Shown here in pieces: positions 1,557 through 25,517 of a stretch of 33,235 nucleotides of DNA. Position numbers and translations under genes: made by a program. Below the pieces are notes generated by a model. That model searched no databases and had not been told where the DNA came from. It worked only from the letters and a program-made list of their open reading frames with translations. The stretch's first letter is position 1. Each line of letters begins with the position of its first letter. This DNA is from Candidatus Aenigmatarchaeota archaeon (lineage in GTDB: Archaea > Aenigmatarchaeota > Aenigmatarchaeia > GW2011-AR5 > JACRMX01), in the NCBI GenBank assembly GCA_016219485.1, contig JACRMX010000035.1, forward strand, positions 1 to 33,235, in the 5' to 3' direction.

Positions 1557-1745
1557 CTACGCTGTTTGTTTCACAGCCCTTATAAGATGGCCTGCTATTT
1601 TATTGCGTGTTTTCTTCTCCTCGACCATGTCCATTTCTTTAAGTATCTTCTTGTTTTCTTCAAAACTTTCTGTAAATTTTCCAGGATACCGTTCCATGAG
1701 CTCCCATGAAGCCCTTTTTATGTCCGCAGTTTTTATTCTTCCCAT
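1557..1745 (-). CDS. rps17e: 30S ribosomal protein S17e
   Basis: MGRIKT..IKR...EL...YP.KFT..FEENK...KKTRNKIAG. Confidence 0.93.
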   Translation of the reverse strand: MGRIKTADIKRASWELMERYPGKFTESFEENKKILKEMDMVEEKKTRNKIAGHLIRAVKQTA

Positions 1746-1801
1746 ATCCATCAATCATAACCACTAATGTCTTTAAAAGGTTTAAACCAGTAGAAAAATC
1801 T

Positions 1802-2776
1802 ATGAAAGCAGCTATGGCAAAATGCCCCTTTGGCATTTTCATATTCGATGAACAAGGCAATATTCTTGCCAGCAGGCTCTATCCAAAAGACCCTCAAAAG
1901 GCGCTGGAGCTCTTCGGTGAAAAAACACCAAAAGAACTGCTTGACCAGCTTAAGGGGTATGAGCTAAAAACAAAGAGCAGTGAAGCTGACAGCATGCTAA
2001 GGGTCAGAATCCGCGAAATCGGGCTGGAAATTTTCGGAAGCCATGAGAACATGAACGAGTTTTTATCCGAATTCGGCATGGCGTTTACGCGGTCAAGGAT
2101 GAAAAAGGCTGTTGGAAGGGACAATCTCATTATACAGGCATCAAATGCACTTGATGACATTAATAAAAGCATAAACCTGTTTGTTACACGGCTGAGAGAA
2201 TGGTATGGCTTGCACTATCCTGAGCTCAAGCTGAGCGACAATGAGCTGATAAAAAGCGTATGCGAGCTTGGTGCAAGGGAAAATTTTCCAAAATTCAGGT
2301 CAAGCACAGGCACAGGGCTTGTGCCTGAAGATGAAGAAATTTTAATGAAATATGCTGCTTTAATAGAAAGGATGCATGAGGACAAGAAAGGGCTTGAAAA
2401 ATATGTGAAGGAATCTGTAAGGGAGACGATGCCTAATTTTTCCTCGCTGATAGACCCGCTTCTTGCTGCCCGTATGCTTGCAATGGCAGGCTCAACTGAA
2501 AGACTGGCGAGAATGACAGCGTCCACCATCCAGCTGCTTGGCGCTGAGAAAGCCCTGTTCAGGCACCTGAAACAGAAAGGAAAGCCGCCAAAGTTCGGGC
2601 TGATTTTTTATTCTCCGTATGTGCAAAATGCGCCTGAAGGAAAAAGGGGCAAGATGGCCAGATTTTTGGCATCAAAGCTGATGCTTGCAGCAAGGATTGA
2701 TTATTATTCAAAGCGGGATGAAAGCAGCAGGCTTAAAAAAGAGCTGGAAGAAGAAATAGGAAGGGTGCTTGCATGA
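1802..2776 (+). CDS. nop5: Box C/D sRNP protein Nop5 (Nop56/58 family)
   Basis: RLREWYGLHYPEL, ASTIQLLGAEKALFRHL, PPKFGLIF, RGKMARFLASKL..AARID; start moved to ATG 1802. Confidence 0.93.
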   Translation: MKAAMAKCPFGIFIFDEQGNILASRLYPKDPQKALELFGEKTPKELLDQLKGYELKTKSSEADSMLRVRIREIGLEIFGSHENMNEFLSEFGMAFTRSRMKKAVGRDNLIIQASNALDDINKSINLFVTRLREWYGLHYPELKLSDNELIKSVCELGARENFPKFRSSTGTGLVPEDEEILMKYAALIERMHEDKKGLEKYVKESVRETMPNFSSLIDPLLAARMLAMAGSTERLARMTASTIQLLGAEKALFRHLKQKGKPPKFGLIFYSPYVQNAPEGKRGKMARFLASKLMLAARIDYYSKRDESSRLKKELEEEIGRVLA

Positions 2777-3411
2777 AAGAGATATTTCCAGGCATTTTCA
2801 GAAAAGGAAATGAGCTGTACACTGTTAACGCAGTTCCTGGAAAACGCGTTTATGGTGAAAAATTAACAGATAACTACAGGGAATGGATTCCTGACAGAAG
2901 CAAGCTTGCTTCTGCAATATTATGCGGCCTGAAAGAAATGCCTGTAAAGCCGGGTGCAAAAATAGTTTACCTGGGAGCATCTACAGGAACCACAGTATCG
3001 CATGTTTCTGATATTATCGGCCTAGATGGAATCGTCTATGCAGTTGAGTTCGCAGAGCGCGTAATGAGAAAACTGATGGATGTTGCTAAGGACAGAAAAA
3101 ATATCGTGCCGATACTTGCTGATGCCAGAAAGCCTGAAGATTACAGCTGGGTGGAAGAGTGTGATGTTGTATACGTGGATGTTGCTGACCCGCAGGAGAC
3201 AGAGCTTTCGCTGAGGAACGCCGAAGCATTCCTGAAAAAAGGCGGCTACATGCTTATAGCAGTCAAGTCTCAGAGCATTGATGTTACAAAAGACCCTAAG
3301 CTCGTGTTTAAGGAGGAATCAGAAAAGCTCAAAGACTACAAAATTCTGCAGATAGTTGATATAGACAAATACCAGAAAGACCACGCGCTAGTTGTTGCTG
3401 TCAATCAATAG
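2773..3411 (+). CDS. flpA: Fibrillarin rRNA/tRNA 2'-O-methyltransferase
   Basis: VYGE, YREW.P.RSKL, YLGASTGTTVSHVSD, YAVEF, DARKP; 4-nt ATGA overlap with nop5. Confidence 0.96.
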   Translation: MKEIFPGIFRKGNELYTVNAVPGKRVYGEKLTDNYREWIPDRSKLASAILCGLKEMPVKPGAKIVYLGASTGTTVSHVSDIIGLDGIVYAVEFAERVMRKLMDVAKDRKNIVPILADARKPEDYSWVEECDVVYVDVADPQETELSLRNAEAFLKKGGYMLIAVKSQSIDVTKDPKLVFKEESEKLKDYKILQIVDIDKYQKDHALVVAVNQ

Positions 3412-10876: not shown

Positions 10877-11011
10877 ATGATTAATATGTTAATTCATCTT
10901 TTTGGATTATATAAAACGAGAAAAGGTTACTCAAAAGGACAAATTAATGTAGTTATAATAATTATCTTATTTTTATTGCTTCTCTTATTTATTTTGACAA
11001 GTAGACGATAA
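10877..11011 (+). CDS. Possible 44-aa hydrophobic peptide (KGQ + hydrophobic helix)
   Basis: MINMLIHLFGLYKTRKGYSKGQINVVIIIILFLLLLLFILTSRR*; begins right after previous stop; overlaps transposase 3' end on opposite strand. Confidence 0.3.
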   Translation: MINMLIHLFGLYKTRKGYSKGQINVVIIIILFLLLLLFILTSRR

Positions 11012-11915
11012 TTTTATTTTGCTTCTATAAATCAAATTCAACCATTTCTCTTTGCCTAAATTAAGCTCTACTCCAGCCTTCTGTGCAGGTATCATATCTA
11101 TGCCCTGATGCACCCGCAGAAAGTTATACCATATAACAAACATCTCCAAAATTTGCTCTGCTGATTTGGAATTCTTGAAGCCACGCATAACTTTAACCCG
11201 TTCTCTGATAGTTCCCTGTATGCGTTCTATCATGTTGTTGCGGTAATCGTGCCTATCAATTATGCGGATATGCTGGACATTATCTTTTGGCACCCTGTTA
11301 GAATACCAAGTTTTAGGTATGGTGTTCATGTAAGCAGGTAATCCATCAGTAAAAACATATATAGGCTTTTCTGCTCTTTGTCTGGTTTTTCTGAATAAAC
11401 CCTTAGCACCATCCAATCCCTTTTCTTTGGCATAATGTGTAGCGACCAGAAACCTTGTTTCTTTGTCTATCAAAGCAAAAAGGTAGTGTTGTTCTTTGTT
11501 ACATTTGATATATATTTCGTCAGCATGATAAACACCCGAAAGGCTGAGATTTAACGAGCTGATGAAAGGCTTTATTGTCATAACGTATCTGCGTATCCAT
11601 CTCAGAATACTCATGTGGCTTACTTCTTTATCACTGAATTGATTTACATGAGTTGCCACTTTTCTCAAACTCATGCCATTCATGTAGAGGTCAAGACATG
11701 CTGTTATCATTTCACGCTTCTTTTTGCATTTCATGAAGCCATCATCAACCACGAAGGTTTCCTTACAGTTGTTGCACTTGTATCTTCTCTTCTTTGTTGT
11801 GCAGTTGTAACGAAAACCCCATCTTATTTATTATTTCTTCACTTTGACATTTCGGACACTTCTCTGGTGCAAAATAGCTTTCGTCTTTATAACCTCTTTT
11901 TGTTTTAGTTTTCAT
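10985..11915 (-). pseudogene. IS6-family DDE transposase with N-terminal Zn ribbon, frameshifted near 11826-11833
   Basis: HADE / FTDG / NNMIER DDE triad, HTH GMSLRKV...ILRWI; N-terminus MKTK...CPKC..EEII joins RWGFRYN...YKCNNC only if a 4-nt AATA duplication is removed. Confidence 0.82.
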
Positions 11916-12158: not shown

Positions 12159-13064
12159 ATGAAAGAGATACATTTAGATGACAAAGTGAAATTATACTAT
12201 GGTGATGTTTTTGAATGTTTAGAAATCCTGCCCAAAAATACTATTCAAACTATCATAACAAGCCCAACATATTGGGGGAAACGCCAGTTTACAAATGATG
12301 AAAGAGAATTTGGAAAAGAATCACTCGAACAATACATTCATAGATGCGTCAGTCTATTTAGCAATCTTCTTGATTTAATCAAGGAAAACGGTTCTCTGTT
12401 TTTTATAATGCAAGATTCACGCATGGGAAGTGGAATTTCAAGGACACAACATTTTAGCGATAAGTTTTTTCGGGAGCATCCATCATGGAAACGCAATGGT
12501 AATTCTAAAGAAGTACATGGCAACAGAAGTAAGGTAACGGCACATCATAATATTATTAAAAATACTTCATGGTGTGGCATCCCTTTCAAAATTGCTAACG
12601 AACTCGTGGATAAAGGCTATATATGGCGTGATTACATAATTTGGGAAAAACCTAATCCAATGCCAGACAAAATAGTAAATCGAGTACGCCAATCTGCCGA
12701 ATATGTCTTTCACTTTGTCAAAAACAAATCTTACAAATACAATCCTAAAGAGATTTCCGTTATTGGAAAGAGTGGGCGTCCTCGACCCATGAATCAAGTA
12801 TGGACAGAAGCACCAAATCCAGAGGTTTCACATTCGGCTACGTTTTCCCCTGTAGTAGTTGAACGTCTTTTGAAAGCTACCACTGATATTGGAGATTGGG
12901 TATTCGACCCTTTCGTGGGTTCAGGAACGCTTCTAAAGTTATGCTTAAAAAACGACAGACGTTTTATTGGATGTGATATTAATTCAGAATTCACAAGAGT
13001 ATGCAAGAGAATTATTACTTCTTATCAGCCTTTAAGGATTTATTCCCATCTTTCAGACCATTGA
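12159..13064 (+). CDS. Beta-class N4-cytosine/N6-adenine DNA methyltransferase
   Basis: Motif IV TSPTY precedes motif I DPFVGSGT; IIWEKPNPMP, HSATF. Confidence 0.9.
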   Translation: MKEIHLDDKVKLYYGDVFECLEILPKNTIQTIITSPTYWGKRQFTNDEREFGKESLEQYIHRCVSLFSNLLDLIKENGSLFFIMQDSRMGSGISRTQHFSDKFFREHPSWKRNGNSKEVHGNRSKVTAHHNIIKNTSWCGIPFKIANELVDKGYIWRDYIIWEKPNPMPDKIVNRVRQSAEYVFHFVKNKSYKYNPKEISVIGKSGRPRPMNQVWTEAPNPEVSHSATFSPVVVERLLKATTDIGDWVFDPFVGSGTLLKLCLKNDRRFIGCDINSEFTRVCKRIITSYQPLRIYSHLSDH

Positions 13065-21342: not shown

Positions 21343-21408
21343 AATAATTATAGTCTTTTGCCGGAATAAAAGCATTCAGTGGTGAGTAGCCTTTTAAAAT
21401 AAAAGAAG

Positions 21409-21611
21409 TGCGAGAGGCAGGATTTGAACCTGCGAACGGACTAACCGACAGGATTTCTCTTTCACTCCAGCTCTGCTGGTCAACACTCAAGTAGATAGCG
21501 CCTTCAGGAAGTTTCTCTTTCGTCCAAACCGACAACCTTCGGTTGTCAATTCGCTTTAAAGAGAAAAGGGTTACTTGAGTCCTGCGCCTTTGACCGCTTG
21601 GCTACTCTCGC
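21409..21611 (-). tRNA. tRNA-Leu(CAA) with 119-nt intron at 37/38 (21455-21573)
   Basis: GCGAGAG/CTCTCGC acceptor, CAGGA-CTCAAG|A-TCCTG anticodon arm, long variable arm, GCAGG-TTCAAAT-CCTGC. Confidence 0.9.
21455..21573 (-). ncRNA. tRNA intron with candidate box D'/C' guide for Cm34
   Basis: TACTTGAGT-G-TTGA-CCAGC-AGA-GCTGG-AGT-GAAA; antisense to ACTCAAG|TA; k-turn geometry. Confidence 0.55.
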
Positions 21612-21750
21612 ATAAATTAATAATAGAATAATAATAGAAATAGGCTTATAAACATTTGAAAATTCTTATGAAAATTTTCCATGCATAGCATCAAAGAAGC
21701 TTTGCTTTCCTAATGAGCTCTGCTTTTCCTTATATTCACATTTCTGATAT

Positions 21751-22209: not shown

Positions 22210-22312
22210 TGCGGTGGCCGAGATATGCGGCAGGCATAAACTATATGCCGGCTTTCGAACTCGGGTCTCAACCGTGGCAGGGTTGTGTCCTAACCAGCTA
22301 GACTACCACCGC
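22210..22312 (-). tRNA. tRNA-Gly(GCC) with 30-nt T-loop intron at 59/60 (22224-22253)
   Basis: GCGGTGG/CCACCGC, CAACC-CTGCCAC-GGTTG; TTCGAA|intron|T with BHB-like junction (one mismatch in central helix). Confidence 0.9.
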
Positions 22313-23858: not shown

Positions 23859-24746
23859 ATGAAATGCAGATGCGGGTCCAAAGCTGTTTATGAAAGAAAG
23901 ACAGAGGGAAGTTTTTATTGTGATGACTGCCTTGCTCGGCAGGTTGAAAAGCGGTTCCAAAAGACTATAAGCGAGAACAAGCTTGTCAAAGCCGGGGATA
24001 CTATCGCAGTAGCACTTAGCGGAGGGAAGGATAGTTCTGCACTGCTTTACATGCTGAACAATAGCAAAAACCCGAAAACAGAAATTTTTGCAATCAGTAT
24101 AGATGAGGGCATTCGTGGCAGGGGTATATGCCTTGAAAAAGCTTCCTGCCTTACAAAAAAACTTGGAATAAGACATTTCATTTTTTCATTTGAAGAGGAG
24201 CTGGGAATAACTATAGACAGCATCAAGGACAGAAAAACATGCACATATTGCGGGGTCTTCAAAAGAAATCTGATAAACAAAAAGGCCCGGGAGCTCGGGG
24301 CGAACAAAATAGCTGTTGGGCACAACCTGAATGACGAGGCGCAATCAATATTGCTTAATTTCCTGAGGGGGGACTGTAACCATTTTCAGAGACTAGGAGC
24401 GGATCCCGTCAAAGACAAAAAATTTGTTCACAGAATAAAACCTTTGCGCGATATTCCGGAAGCAGAAATCGTGCTCTATGCCAGAATTAAAAAAATACCG
24501 CATATAAACAGGCGGTGCATATATTCCTATGACAACCAGAGGCGGGATATATTGAATATGCTGGATAGCCTTGAAAAAAAATATCCAGGCACTATTTTTC
24601 AGATAGTAAAATTCTATGACCGCATAAAGCCCTTGGTAAGCAAGAGTGATAAAGTTAGCATAGGGTACTGCGACAGATGCGGCGAACCAGGAGGAAAATT
24701 GTGCAAAAGCTGCCAGCTTCTCACAGAACTAAAGAAGCTTTCCTGA
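23859..24746 (+). CDS. tRNA 2-thiolation protein (TtuA/NcsA/Ncs6 family)
   Basis: N-terminal Zn finger, PP-loop SGGKDS, CTYCGV, GHNLND, IKPL, C-terminal CxxC/CxxC. Confidence 0.88.
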   Translation: MKCRCGSKAVYERKTEGSFYCDDCLARQVEKRFQKTISENKLVKAGDTIAVALSGGKDSSALLYMLNNSKNPKTEIFAISIDEGIRGRGICLEKASCLTKKLGIRHFIFSFEEELGITIDSIKDRKTCTYCGVFKRNLINKKARELGANKIAVGHNLNDEAQSILLNFLRGDCNHFQRLGADPVKDKKFVHRIKPLRDIPEAEIVLYARIKKIPHINRRCIYSYDNQRRDILNMLDSLEKKYPGTIFQIVKFYDRIKPLVSKSDKVSIGYCDRCGEPGGKLCKSCQLLTELKKLS

Positions 24747-25517
24747 CTGCTGGACTATTTCATATGCCAGCTTTTTTCCAAATTTCGACCCTAGTTTTTT
24801 CTCGTTTTTGATCACGTCTTTTATTGTGATAAAACCGTTTTTTTCAAGCATGCTGACTGTTCTTTTATCAATACTGAGAATAGCTACCGGATACAGCTTC
24901 TTTGCCTTGACAAGGTTTTCGAGCGAGTCTTCTTCCTTATACCGCCATCCTGTCAGCCTAATTTTTTTCCCTTCTGCATACCTCTTTGCATGTTCTGAAA
25001 ACTTGGTGTTTGTTATTATCCATGCTTTATCAAAATGATTCCTGCCTCCCCTGTTTATGTCGTCCAGCCTTGCCCAGACTTCCATTGTTTCACCCAAGCC
25101 GCAGTCGCGGTGAGGATTTGCATGCTTTTTGCATTCCACCAGATAGCTCATCTCATTTTTTGCAATGAGATCAACCTGATGCTCCACGATTTCACCTTTT
25201 ATAATCCTATTCCAGCTGCACATGTACCCATGCTCTTCCAAAAGCTTTTCAACAAATTTTTCAAAGACTTCTGAGTCCATGCGTGCAATTGCTTCCCTGA
25301 TCCTGTATACAAACATGGACTTTTCGCTGTATTTTTGCAGCTCTTTCAGGATGAGTTTGTATATTCTTTTTGTGCTTGTACCACTGGTCACGTTTTTTTC
25401 TATCTTATTAGCGACCTCTTTTGCTTCTTTCATCGGAAGCTCTGCTCTCATGCAGGTTCTTATTATTTTTTTCTTGTCGAATTTTTCACTTTCCCCATTT
25501 GCTTTGATAACGAACAT
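24729..25517 (-). CDS. ATP-cone domain fused to Mrr-like PD-(D/E)XK endonuclease
   Basis: VIKANGESEKFD.KKI ATP cone; FEKFV, HQVDLIA, LVECK, ITNTKFS..A..YA. Confidence 0.85.
   Translation of the reverse strand: MFVIKANGESEKFDKKKIIRTCMRAELPMKEAKEVANKIEKNVTSGTSTKRIYKLILKELQKYSEKSMFVYRIREAIARMDSEVFEKFVEKLLEEHGYMCSWNRIIKGEIVEHQVDLIAKNEMSYLVECKKHANPHRDCGLGETMEVWARLDDINRGGRNHFDKAWIITNTKFSEHAKRYAEGKKIRLTGWRYKEEDSLENLVKAKKLYPVAILSIDKRTVSMLEKNGFITIKDVIKNEKKLGSKFGKKLAYEIVQQSGKLL

Follow-up and report, generated by a model that had tools for sequence, protein, structure and literature searches.

The closest described system to the locus reported here is the intron of euryarchaeal pre-tRNA-Trp, which encodes a guide for its own tRNA, directing 2'-O-methylation of C34 (Cm34) and U39 (Um39); the review PMC4090602 calls it unique, and a 2024 review (PMC11408192) names no other case. 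Here we analyse a stretch of 33,235 nucleotides from a Candidatus Aenigmatarchaeota archaeon (contig JACRMX010000035.1), hereafter the window, whose tRNA-Leu(CAA) gene carries in its intron a putative guide unit with a single kink-turn, predicted to direct methylation of C34 of the same precursor. Like the pre-tRNA-Trp guide of Haloferax volcanii and its Pyrococcus counterpart sR50, this unit is nested in an intron between positions 37 and 38 (PMC4090602, PMC11408192, PMC7994747, PMC6313347), and the guide upstream of its D' box selects C34 of the host tRNA. The two differ in host and lineage, tRNA-Leu(CAA) and once tRNA-Leu(UAA) in DPANN archaea as opposed to tRNA-Trp in Euryarchaeota, and in architecture, a single kink-turn with a single guide here contrasting with a C/D plus a C'/D' motif and two guides (for C34 and U39) there. 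The introns described here are also as short as 35 nt, may lie at position 30/31 upstream of the target, and show no sequence match to any Rfam C/D family.

A second group of relatives acts in trans. Four box C/D small RNAs (sRNAs) of Pyrococcus target the first anticodon position of tRNA-Leu(CAA) and tRNA-Leu(UAA), of tRNA-Met and of tRNA-Trp, only the last being intronic (Breuer et al. 2021, PMC7994747), and C34 of tRNA-Leu(CAA) is a predicted C/D target in P. furiosus (Wolff et al. 2020, PMC7668247). The free Pyrococcus sRNAs address the same N34 in the same tRNAs through an antisense element and the fifth-base rule, as the unit described here would, whereas they are trans-acting products of separate genes with two motifs and our unit sits in the intron of its target with only one. 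The target nucleotide is established in Pyrococcus. A literature search covering titles, abstract openings and some passages found no description of a guide in a tRNA-Leu intron or of the tRNA introns of Aenigmatarchaeota.

The Rfam tRNA model aligns to the window gene with a 122-nt insertion within the anticodon loop, and ARAGORN, when long introns are allowed (-i200), reports a tRNA-Leu(caa) with a 119-nt intron after position 37; at default settings ARAGORN misses the gene. The parts of the gene and of the guide unit are the following.

21409..21611, minus strand: tRNA-Leu(CAA) gene including its intron (Rfam tRNA model, 43.6 bits, E 1e-07; ARAGORN)
21574..21611, minus strand: 5' exon, from the acceptor to G37, with C34, A35 and A36 at 21577, 21576 and 21575 (tRNA-model alignment)
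21455..21573, minus strand: 119-nt intron at the canonical 37/38 position (Rfam tRNA model and ARAGORN)
21409..21454, minus strand: 3' exon, from A38 to the discriminator base (near-identical 3' halves in relatives)
21572..21580, minus strand: target strand, A31 to G37 plus the first two intron bases (21573, 21572); predicted methylated nucleotide C34 at 21577
21493..21485, minus strand: guide (antisense) UACUUGAGU, complementary at 9 of 9 positions to A31-G37 (21580..21574) and to 21573 and 21572
21484, minus strand: spacer G, the single base between guide and D'-like box
21480..21483, minus strand: D'-like box UUGA, forming the kink-turn's non-bulged strand (offset fixed in 16 of 20 antisense-bearing orthologs; covariation)
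21467..21479, minus strand: C-stem hairpin CCAGC-AGA-GCUGG closing the kink-turn (-6.6 kcal/mol folded alone)
21460..21466, minus strand: C'-like box AGU-GA-AA, with AGU (21466..21464) as 3-nt bulge and GAAA (21463..21460) giving the sheared GA and two A facing the UU of the D'-like box
21455..21459, minus strand: GAGAA, the 3' end of the intron, whose GAG can pair with C32-U33-C34 (by hand)

A sequence-only reading of this stretch had proposed that the intron is a self-targeting guide, and its description of the parts is accurate: the nine-nucleotide stretch is perfectly antisense to A31-G37 and two intron bases, UUGA follows one base downstream, and the hairpin, AGU and GAAA come next in that order. 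The fifth base upstream of UUGA is G21488, which pairs with C34 (21577), again as it had counted. At the sequence level, the two boxes (UUGA and AGU-GA-AA) and their 5-bp stem show the features that define a kink-turn, namely NUGA/RUGA-type boxes, tandem sheared G.A pairs and a protruding U. The copy is intact, with both GA kept, both pairs of the non-canonical stem Watson-Crick, a closing stem of five base pairs and nine contiguous base pairs between guide and target; its 13-nt core ACUUGAGUGUUGA is identical in genome G002, a member of another family, in which the surrounding intron differs. The minimum-energy fold of the precursor (-76 kcal/mol, z -3.9, 0 of 200 shuffles as stable) includes the helix between guide and anticodon loop. 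The intron as a whole is composite: a few bases come first, then an inserted module, and a linker leads on to the guide unit.

By itself the window locus is only suggestive. Among 20,000 dinucleotide-preserving shuffles of the window intron, 0.97% contained 9 or more contiguous antisense nucleotides spanning C34 and 287 contained UUGAGU-N-NNGA; an initial scan over many windows can be expected to run into cases like these by chance. Scanning the genome for any 7-mer antisense with a kink-turn near its target was uninformative (144 matches against 88 in the reversed control), the Leu(CAA) unit being the only one of the 144 to fall in a tRNA. Because about 1% of the shuffled window introns do as well as the real one, significance was taken from the comparison with relatives.

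Orthologs were collected without use of the motif, by searching 61 relatives with the whole precursor and extracting Leu genes by BLAST of the exon halves, which yielded tRNA-Leu(CAA) genes from 26 genomes. Of these 26, 20 carry a stretch antisense to the anticodon loop, its UUGAG core being followed by U or A. Sixteen of the 20 have NNGA exactly one base after it, with the D'+5 register kept on nucleotide 34, and 19 have an R-U-G-A box downstream. The unit they share consists of the antisense of A31-G37, one nucleotide, a D'-like NNGA, a loop or hairpin and a C'-like RUGA-NN. The window intron lies at position 37/38 of its own target tRNA, whereas most carriers have the unit in a second intron at 30/31, upstream of the anticodon loop, in the layout exon...CAAG | ...CUUGAGU-N-NUGA-(loop or hairpin)-RUGANN-GCGAU | ACUCAAG... 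One type of unit is found in two introns, 30/31 and 37/38, with its order relative to the target permuted.

Pattern searches extended this picture. The 30/31 pattern gave one match each in 24 of the 70 genomes of the order (reversed-pattern control 0) and reached 31 of the 371 genomes of the class (control 0), seven of them outside the order, in five other families. A short-gap 37/38 pattern matched 6 of the 70 genomes of the order (control 0); the window escapes it because the 60-nt module widens the gap to 82 nt. G015, G039 and the window have gaps too wide for the patterns; with these three included, an intact unit is present in at least 33 of the 70 genomes of the order, and a further three (G005, G042 and G058) carry a D' box that lacks GA. 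When a stricter 30/31 pattern was run over one genome per species in 185,579 species, 41 matches were obtained: 27 in a tRNA-Leu context, all in archaeal metagenome-assembled genomes mostly labelled Candidatus Aenigmatarchaeota, and 14 in bacteria without tRNA context, a number near that estimated by hand for chance. The window-like 37/38 pattern found seven matches in metagenome contigs, six of which are tRNA-Leu(CAA) genes with 37/38 units, and one of these units resembles that of the window in having a long hairpin-like 5' insert before the guide.

The guide adjoins the D' box through a one-base spacer in all 42 parsed units, and the D'+5 register falls on nucleotide 34 in every one, as is fixed by the pattern for those found as pattern matches. 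The guide duplex is 9 bp long in the window, 6 to 8 bp in relatives checked by hand and 7 bp (A31-G37) in the commonest form. One guide has changed together with its anticodon. A Leu(UAA)-type pattern matched a single one of the 371 genomes (G095), the reversed control also giving one match, and the G095 match is a clean tRNA-Leu(UAA) gene with a 35-nt intron at 30/31, UAUCAUC-UUAAGU-C-AUGA-CUAAAG-AUGAUU-GCGAU. Its guide has UUAAG in place of UUGAG, hence A opposite U34 where the CAA units have G, and all parts of the unit are present.

The kink-turn itself was examined through covariation in the 42 parsed genomes, using features of box C/D kink-turns given in PMC1865073 (consensus boxes, tandem G.A, protruding U, and K-loops accepted by L7Ae). 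The patterns had fixed the D' GA and the C' R-U-G-A and left D' bases N1 and N2 and C' bases N5 and N6 free; in a kink-turn N1 is expected to pair with N6, and N2 to face N5, canonically as U.U. N1 and N6 form a Watson-Crick pair in 39 of the 42 genomes (A:U in 22, U:A in 14, C:G in 3). When N6 was shuffled among genomes the mean was 19.2 pairs and 39 was reached in 0 of 10,000 trials, and pairing holds in 14 of 15 when each distinct haplotype is counted once (7.5 on average after shuffling, p about 1e-4), values to be read as upper bounds on significance because the relatives are not independent samples and shuffle tests overstate it. Several types of N1:N6 pair within single families point to repeated compensatory change at these sequence positions. 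N2 and N5 form U.U in 24 of 42 genomes, a Watson-Crick or G.U pair in 15 and another combination in 3, and double changes occur there, for example ACGA together with GUGAGU and UCGA together with AUGAGA. Between the two boxes lie 3-7 nt in 19 of the 42, corresponding to a K-loop; the intervening segment is longer in 23, and in 18 of these a stem of 3 bp or more closes it (on average 4.2 bp, compared with 1.5 bp after shuffling). These closing stems vary in sequence, from CCAGC/GCUGG in the window to GUUUU/AAAAC, GCUG/CAGC, GAGC/GCUC, UCCC/GGGA, AUAACC/GGUUAU and UGCGAAA/UUUCGCA elsewhere. The alignment of related Leu(CAA) introns had been named beforehand as the test able to refute the guide; what it returned was a conserved guide, D'-like box and RUGA, with covarying kink-turn pairs. 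Together with the guide that changed with its anticodon, these comparative data support the sequence-only reading of a self-targeting guide in the Leu intron.

The same region must also be spliced. The archaeal splice motif, the bulge-helix-bulge, has two 3-nt bulges separated by a helix of 4 bp and is cut after the second base of each bulge. In pre-tRNA-Trp the guide structure and the splice motif compete and are mutually exclusive. In the window, pairing by hand joins C32 to G21457, U33 to A21458 and C34 to G21459, with A35 facing A21460. The splice motif that would result is relaxed, its bulges being A36 G37|U and A A|A38, and no outer helix was found for it; the ending ...NAGAA|A recurs in other 37/38 introns. 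The GAG of the guide and that of the terminal GAGAA compete for the same C32-U33-C34, so that the two conformers are mutually exclusive here as well. In the 30/31 introns the 3'-terminal UGCG-AU|A can likewise be paired by hand with C25-A28 of the exon, and AUCAUC, close to the intron's 5' end, finds its complement in GAUGAU of the C'-like box. On these complementarities, a bulge-helix-bulge conformer that uses the C'-like box is predicted for the 30/31 introns. The splice motif is not the whole story as judged from the alignment, because the helix between antisense and anticodon and the D'-like GA have no place in it and N6 tracks D' N1, not the invariant exon base A28 that it would face in the splice helix. 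The Leu genes of relatives have up to three introns, in the D-loop, at 30/31 and at 37/38, and some have introns in the T-loop or variable arm.

We consider it likely, on the strength of these sequence comparisons, that C34 is methylated by L7Ae, Nop5 and fibrillarin on the unspliced precursor, which then refolds into the splice motif. L7Ae would bind the kink-turn and recruit Nop5-fibrillarin, and fibrillarin would 2'-O-methylate C34 while the intron is still present. The RNA would then refold so that C32-U33-C34 pair with the GAG of the terminal GAGAA, forming the relaxed bulge-helix-bulge, and the splicing endonuclease would remove the intron. The presence of two intron bases in the guide duplex makes the unspliced precursor the predicted target, and the mutual exclusion of guide helix and splice motif would place methylation before splicing. 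As there is a single kink-turn, the unit would act as a natural 'half' guide, in cis or between two precursor molecules; with its second motif absent, it is classed as a guide-like variant and not as a standard member of the box C/D family. A broader proposition, which we hold to be evenly balanced, is that Aenigmatarchaeota as a whole have single-kink-turn guides in cis within their tRNA-Leu introns, some of these of only 35 nt, in which the covalent tether replaces the second motif, held to be indispensable for site specificity, and a switch of the type 'methylate C34, then splice' operates, and that these guides have moved between introns and been retargeted at least once, from CAA to UAA.

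Several observations weigh against the guide. Hardin and Batey (2006, PMC1635284) report weak and non-specific methylation by single-motif complexes and describe the two-motif design as absolutely conserved in natural ones. A terminal C/D kink-turn (RUGAUGA...CUGA with a terminal stem; consensus after PMC1865073) was sought in the orthologs and no conserved C or D box was found, and the 35-nt introns of relatives have no second kink-turn because they leave no room for one. Against Rfam, whether with gathering thresholds or with E relaxed to 10, the region matched only the tRNA model and no C/D family. The guide duplex is shorter than the canonical one, guide-target complementarity of archaeal C/D sRNAs usually being about 10-12 nt; the seven guide bases opposite A31-G37 are fully complementary in 27 of 42 units, and in 8 of 42 the base opposite G37 is A, which leaves 6 contiguous bp. 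In the kink-turn, N1 and N6 are C facing U in the three exceptions among 42 genomes, and the D' GA, kept in 39 of 42, is absent in 3. The antisense is missing in 6 of the 26 orthologs (G001, G006, G020, G033, G022 and G034), including G001, the only other genome of the window's family, and G033, the sister of the carrier G043; in G009 the copy has decayed, reading UUGU and lacking the C' box. It follows from these losses that the element is dispensable or replaceable. The sequencing-run search found no RNA run with the locus, one soil RNA run sharing 0.05 of its words, and among reads placed on the locus there were no joints, and none from RNA covered the intron. An H/ACA-type guide was also considered and rejected, the target strand being paired continuously with no pseudouridylation pocket (architecture after PMC1865073), as was a SCARNA7 match, which is noise (14 bits against a cutoff of 65).

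Some of these points would fit the view that the window unit is a relic, by decay or by chance, out of use in this genome although its homologue elsewhere is functional: G001 has lost the unit, G009 retains only the decayed copy, the window intron has absorbed a 60-nt repeated module, and for the window alone about 1% of shuffles equal it. Such decay is hard to reconcile with a copy that is fully intact and has 9 contiguous bp where the commonest guide form has 7, or with a 13-nt core that is the same in another family despite a differing intron, and we hold it to be improbable. Less probable still, and in our view very much so, is that the complementarity and the GAUGAUUGCGAU-type motif are merely parts of the bulge-helix-bulge, with no kink-turn and no bound protein. 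The 30/31 introns lend something to it, since the 3' UGCG pairs with C25-A28 and GAUGAU of the C' box complements AUCAUC as an outer helix when paired by hand. The antisense-anticodon helix has no bulge-helix-bulge role at either intron position, though; C' base 6 covaries with D' base 1 and not with A28, the D'-like GA stays at a fixed offset despite being partnerless in the splice structure, and the unit persists across two introns with different splice contexts.

The rival to which we give most thought, while still finding it unlikely, is that kink-turn and antisense helix, though genuine and under selection, serve folding or processing, by masking the anticodon loop, chaperoning the precursor or ordering intron removal, with fibrillarin idle. 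L7Ae binds kink-turns unrelated to methylation in many archaeal RNAs, among them RNase P, H/ACA RNAs and mRNA leaders, and the unit has only one kink-turn where single-motif complexes work poorly in vitro (PMC1635284). Moreover, the presence of up to three introns, combined with the competition between guide helix and splice motif, makes a regulator of splicing order plausible. A pure folding aid would nevertheless leave unexplained why the D'+5 register falls on nucleotide 34, and why the unit is restricted to Leu(CAA) and one Leu(UAA), which are targets of free guides in Pyrococcus (PMC7994747). Other intron-rich tRNA genes of these genomes are also without such a unit, in what was a weak search.

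Comparison with other ways of modifying the same nucleotide places this reading in context. Bacterial TrmL and eukaryotic Trm7/FTSJ1 produce the same Cm34 of tRNA-Leu(CAA) that is predicted here (PMC4615657, PMC11408192), unlike our unit as stand-alone enzymes without guide RNA; the existence of such protein-only enzymes suggests, by analogy, a widely shared need for Cm34 in this tRNA. The same nucleotide of eukaryotic pre-tRNA-Leu(CAA) carries 5-methylcytidine (m5C34) made by Trm4/NSUN2, for which the intron is required (PMC4090602, PMC11408192). That reaction differs in being a base methylation by a protein that reads an intron-extended structure, with no guide RNA and no kink-turn. In architecture the nearest likeness is to engineered single-site ('hemi') box C/D complexes, which also have one kink-turn and one guide (PMC1635284). 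In contrast to these, the natural units keep the target tethered in cis, either at 5 nt from the C'-like box or via the hairpin loop, and this tether might replace the second motif as a positioning device.

If the guide is real, the pre-tRNA-Trp intron would be joined by a second intron that guides modification of its host tRNA, in a different tRNA and a different archaeal phylum. The many introns that interrupt the tRNA genes of DPANN archaea would gain a functional reason for being retained. The unit would also offer a natural minimal box C/D substrate, with one kink-turn, a guide of 6-9 bp and a target in cis, on which the two-motif requirement can be tested. It would fit the pattern that C34 of tRNA-Leu(CAA) is a modified nucleotide in all domains: bacteria use TrmL, eukaryotes use Trm7 and the intron-dependent Trm4, and a guide RNA serves in Pyrococcus, as it would here. 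Direct testing in vitro is possible, since all components, protein and RNA, are small and have known sequences.

The 5' half of the window intron is occupied by a different structure, outside the guide unit.

21509..21569, minus strand: hairpin module in the 5' half of the intron (-26.2 kcal/mol, z -5.5)
21504..21526, minus strand: UGGACGA-N12-CUGA, in which UGGACGA is the 3' strand of the repeated module

This module of about 60 nt has an outer stem of U-rich and A-rich strands enclosing GAAUUGAC-hairpin-GUCGGUUYGG. Copies occur on at least seven other contigs of the assembly (C42:22232-22280, C30:5177-5205, C35:228-248, C20:13285-13336, C8:1695-1720, two on C62, and C37:643-666). Those on C42, C30 and C35 lie, by eye, in apparent D-loop introns of other tRNA genes, and in those on C20, C62, C8 and C37 the inner stem is different yet still paired. 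This distribution suggests, from sequence, that the hairpin is a mobile or duplicated intron module. The sequence-only reading had seen in UGGACGA-N12-CUGA a second C-like/D pair upstream of the guide. The letters are there; a kink-turn role was rejected, the motif lying within the repeated module with no flanking stem and being unconserved in orthologous introns. A kink-turn inside the hairpin module was discarded too, as the A of the would-be bulged-strand GA is lost in the copies on C30 and C8. The sequence-only reading had further proposed that UUUCUCUUU pairs with AAAGAGAAA, extending the anticodon stem. That pairing is possible and is one of two that compete: UUUUCUCUUU (about 21567..21558) can pair with the 3' AAAGAGAA and equally well with an internal copy at 21519..21511, and it is the pairing of UUUUCUCUUU with 21519..21511 that the predicted fold holds, not the 3' one.

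The source assembly comprises 650 kb in 66 contigs, with 41.5% G+C and an estimated completeness of 75%. The nop5 and fibrillarin genes that had been placed within the window are indeed there, as their domain matches confirm.

1706..2776, plus strand: Nop5 gene (PF01798, 173 bits)
2773..3411, plus strand: fibrillarin gene (PF01269, 275.3 bits)

An N-terminal fragment of L7Ae is found at the end of contig C42, and a second L7Ae-family match, lying upstream of what by eye resembles a NusA-type KH protein, looks like L30e. A strict regular expression for canonical two-motif C/D sRNAs gave 0 matches in the whole genome, which is no proof of their absence because the genome is 75% complete. Over the entire 650-kb assembly the Rfam tRNA model reported only 5 tRNAs and missed the Leu gene; much of the tRNA complement of this lineage will escape standard finders.

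The locus itself was found in DNA runs of groundwater metagenomes only. A contig from a soil metatranscriptome (run X17) matches window positions 21402-21454, the 3' exon, with 2 differences, and continues as ...GCGAA|ACUUAAG..., that is, as a relative's tRNA-Leu(UAA)-type gene that retains an intron end of the 30/31 type. This contig may stem from a precursor not yet spliced, or from DNA that found its way into the RNA library.

Other tRNA genes of these archaea are unusual as well. The tRNA-Gly(GCC) gene at 22210-22312 of the window, minus strand, has about 30 extra nucleotides inserted in its T-loop region and is matched by the Rfam model over positions 7-64 only (29.8 bits); it neighbours tRNA-Leu(CAA) in several relatives too. 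Another Leu gene of relatives has tandem anticodon loops, GCUUAGG and GCUCAGA (anticodons UAG and CAG), in one tRNA body. It occurs in L005-L009, L017, L018, L035 and L040 (e.g., L008 at about 1399-1550) and is not found in the window. The 3' splice-site motif GCGAA or GCGAU precedes the second loop, and in seven genes read by eye the first loop too. The pattern GCUUAGG-N0-30-CG-NN-GCUCAGA gave one match each in 25 of the 70 genomes of the order, against 1 control match. From its sequence it looks as if this gene could yield two isoacceptors via alternative splice sites. The nearest known case is the tri-split tRNA of Caldivirga. Among titles and abstract openings, a literature search found no description of alternative anticodon cassettes.

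Elsewhere in the window, an intergenic repeat (...UUUUCCAUGCAUAGCAUCARRAAGCUUUGC...) lies at about 21660-21720 on the plus strand and recurs on contigs C4, C6, C56 and C62; it could be a regulatory or mobile element. A gene for a DDE transposase with an IS240-type domain adjoins an N6/N4 DNA methylase gene (10985-11752, minus strand, and 12159-13064, plus strand), and a restriction-endonuclease-like protein with an ATP-cone is encoded at 24729-25517.

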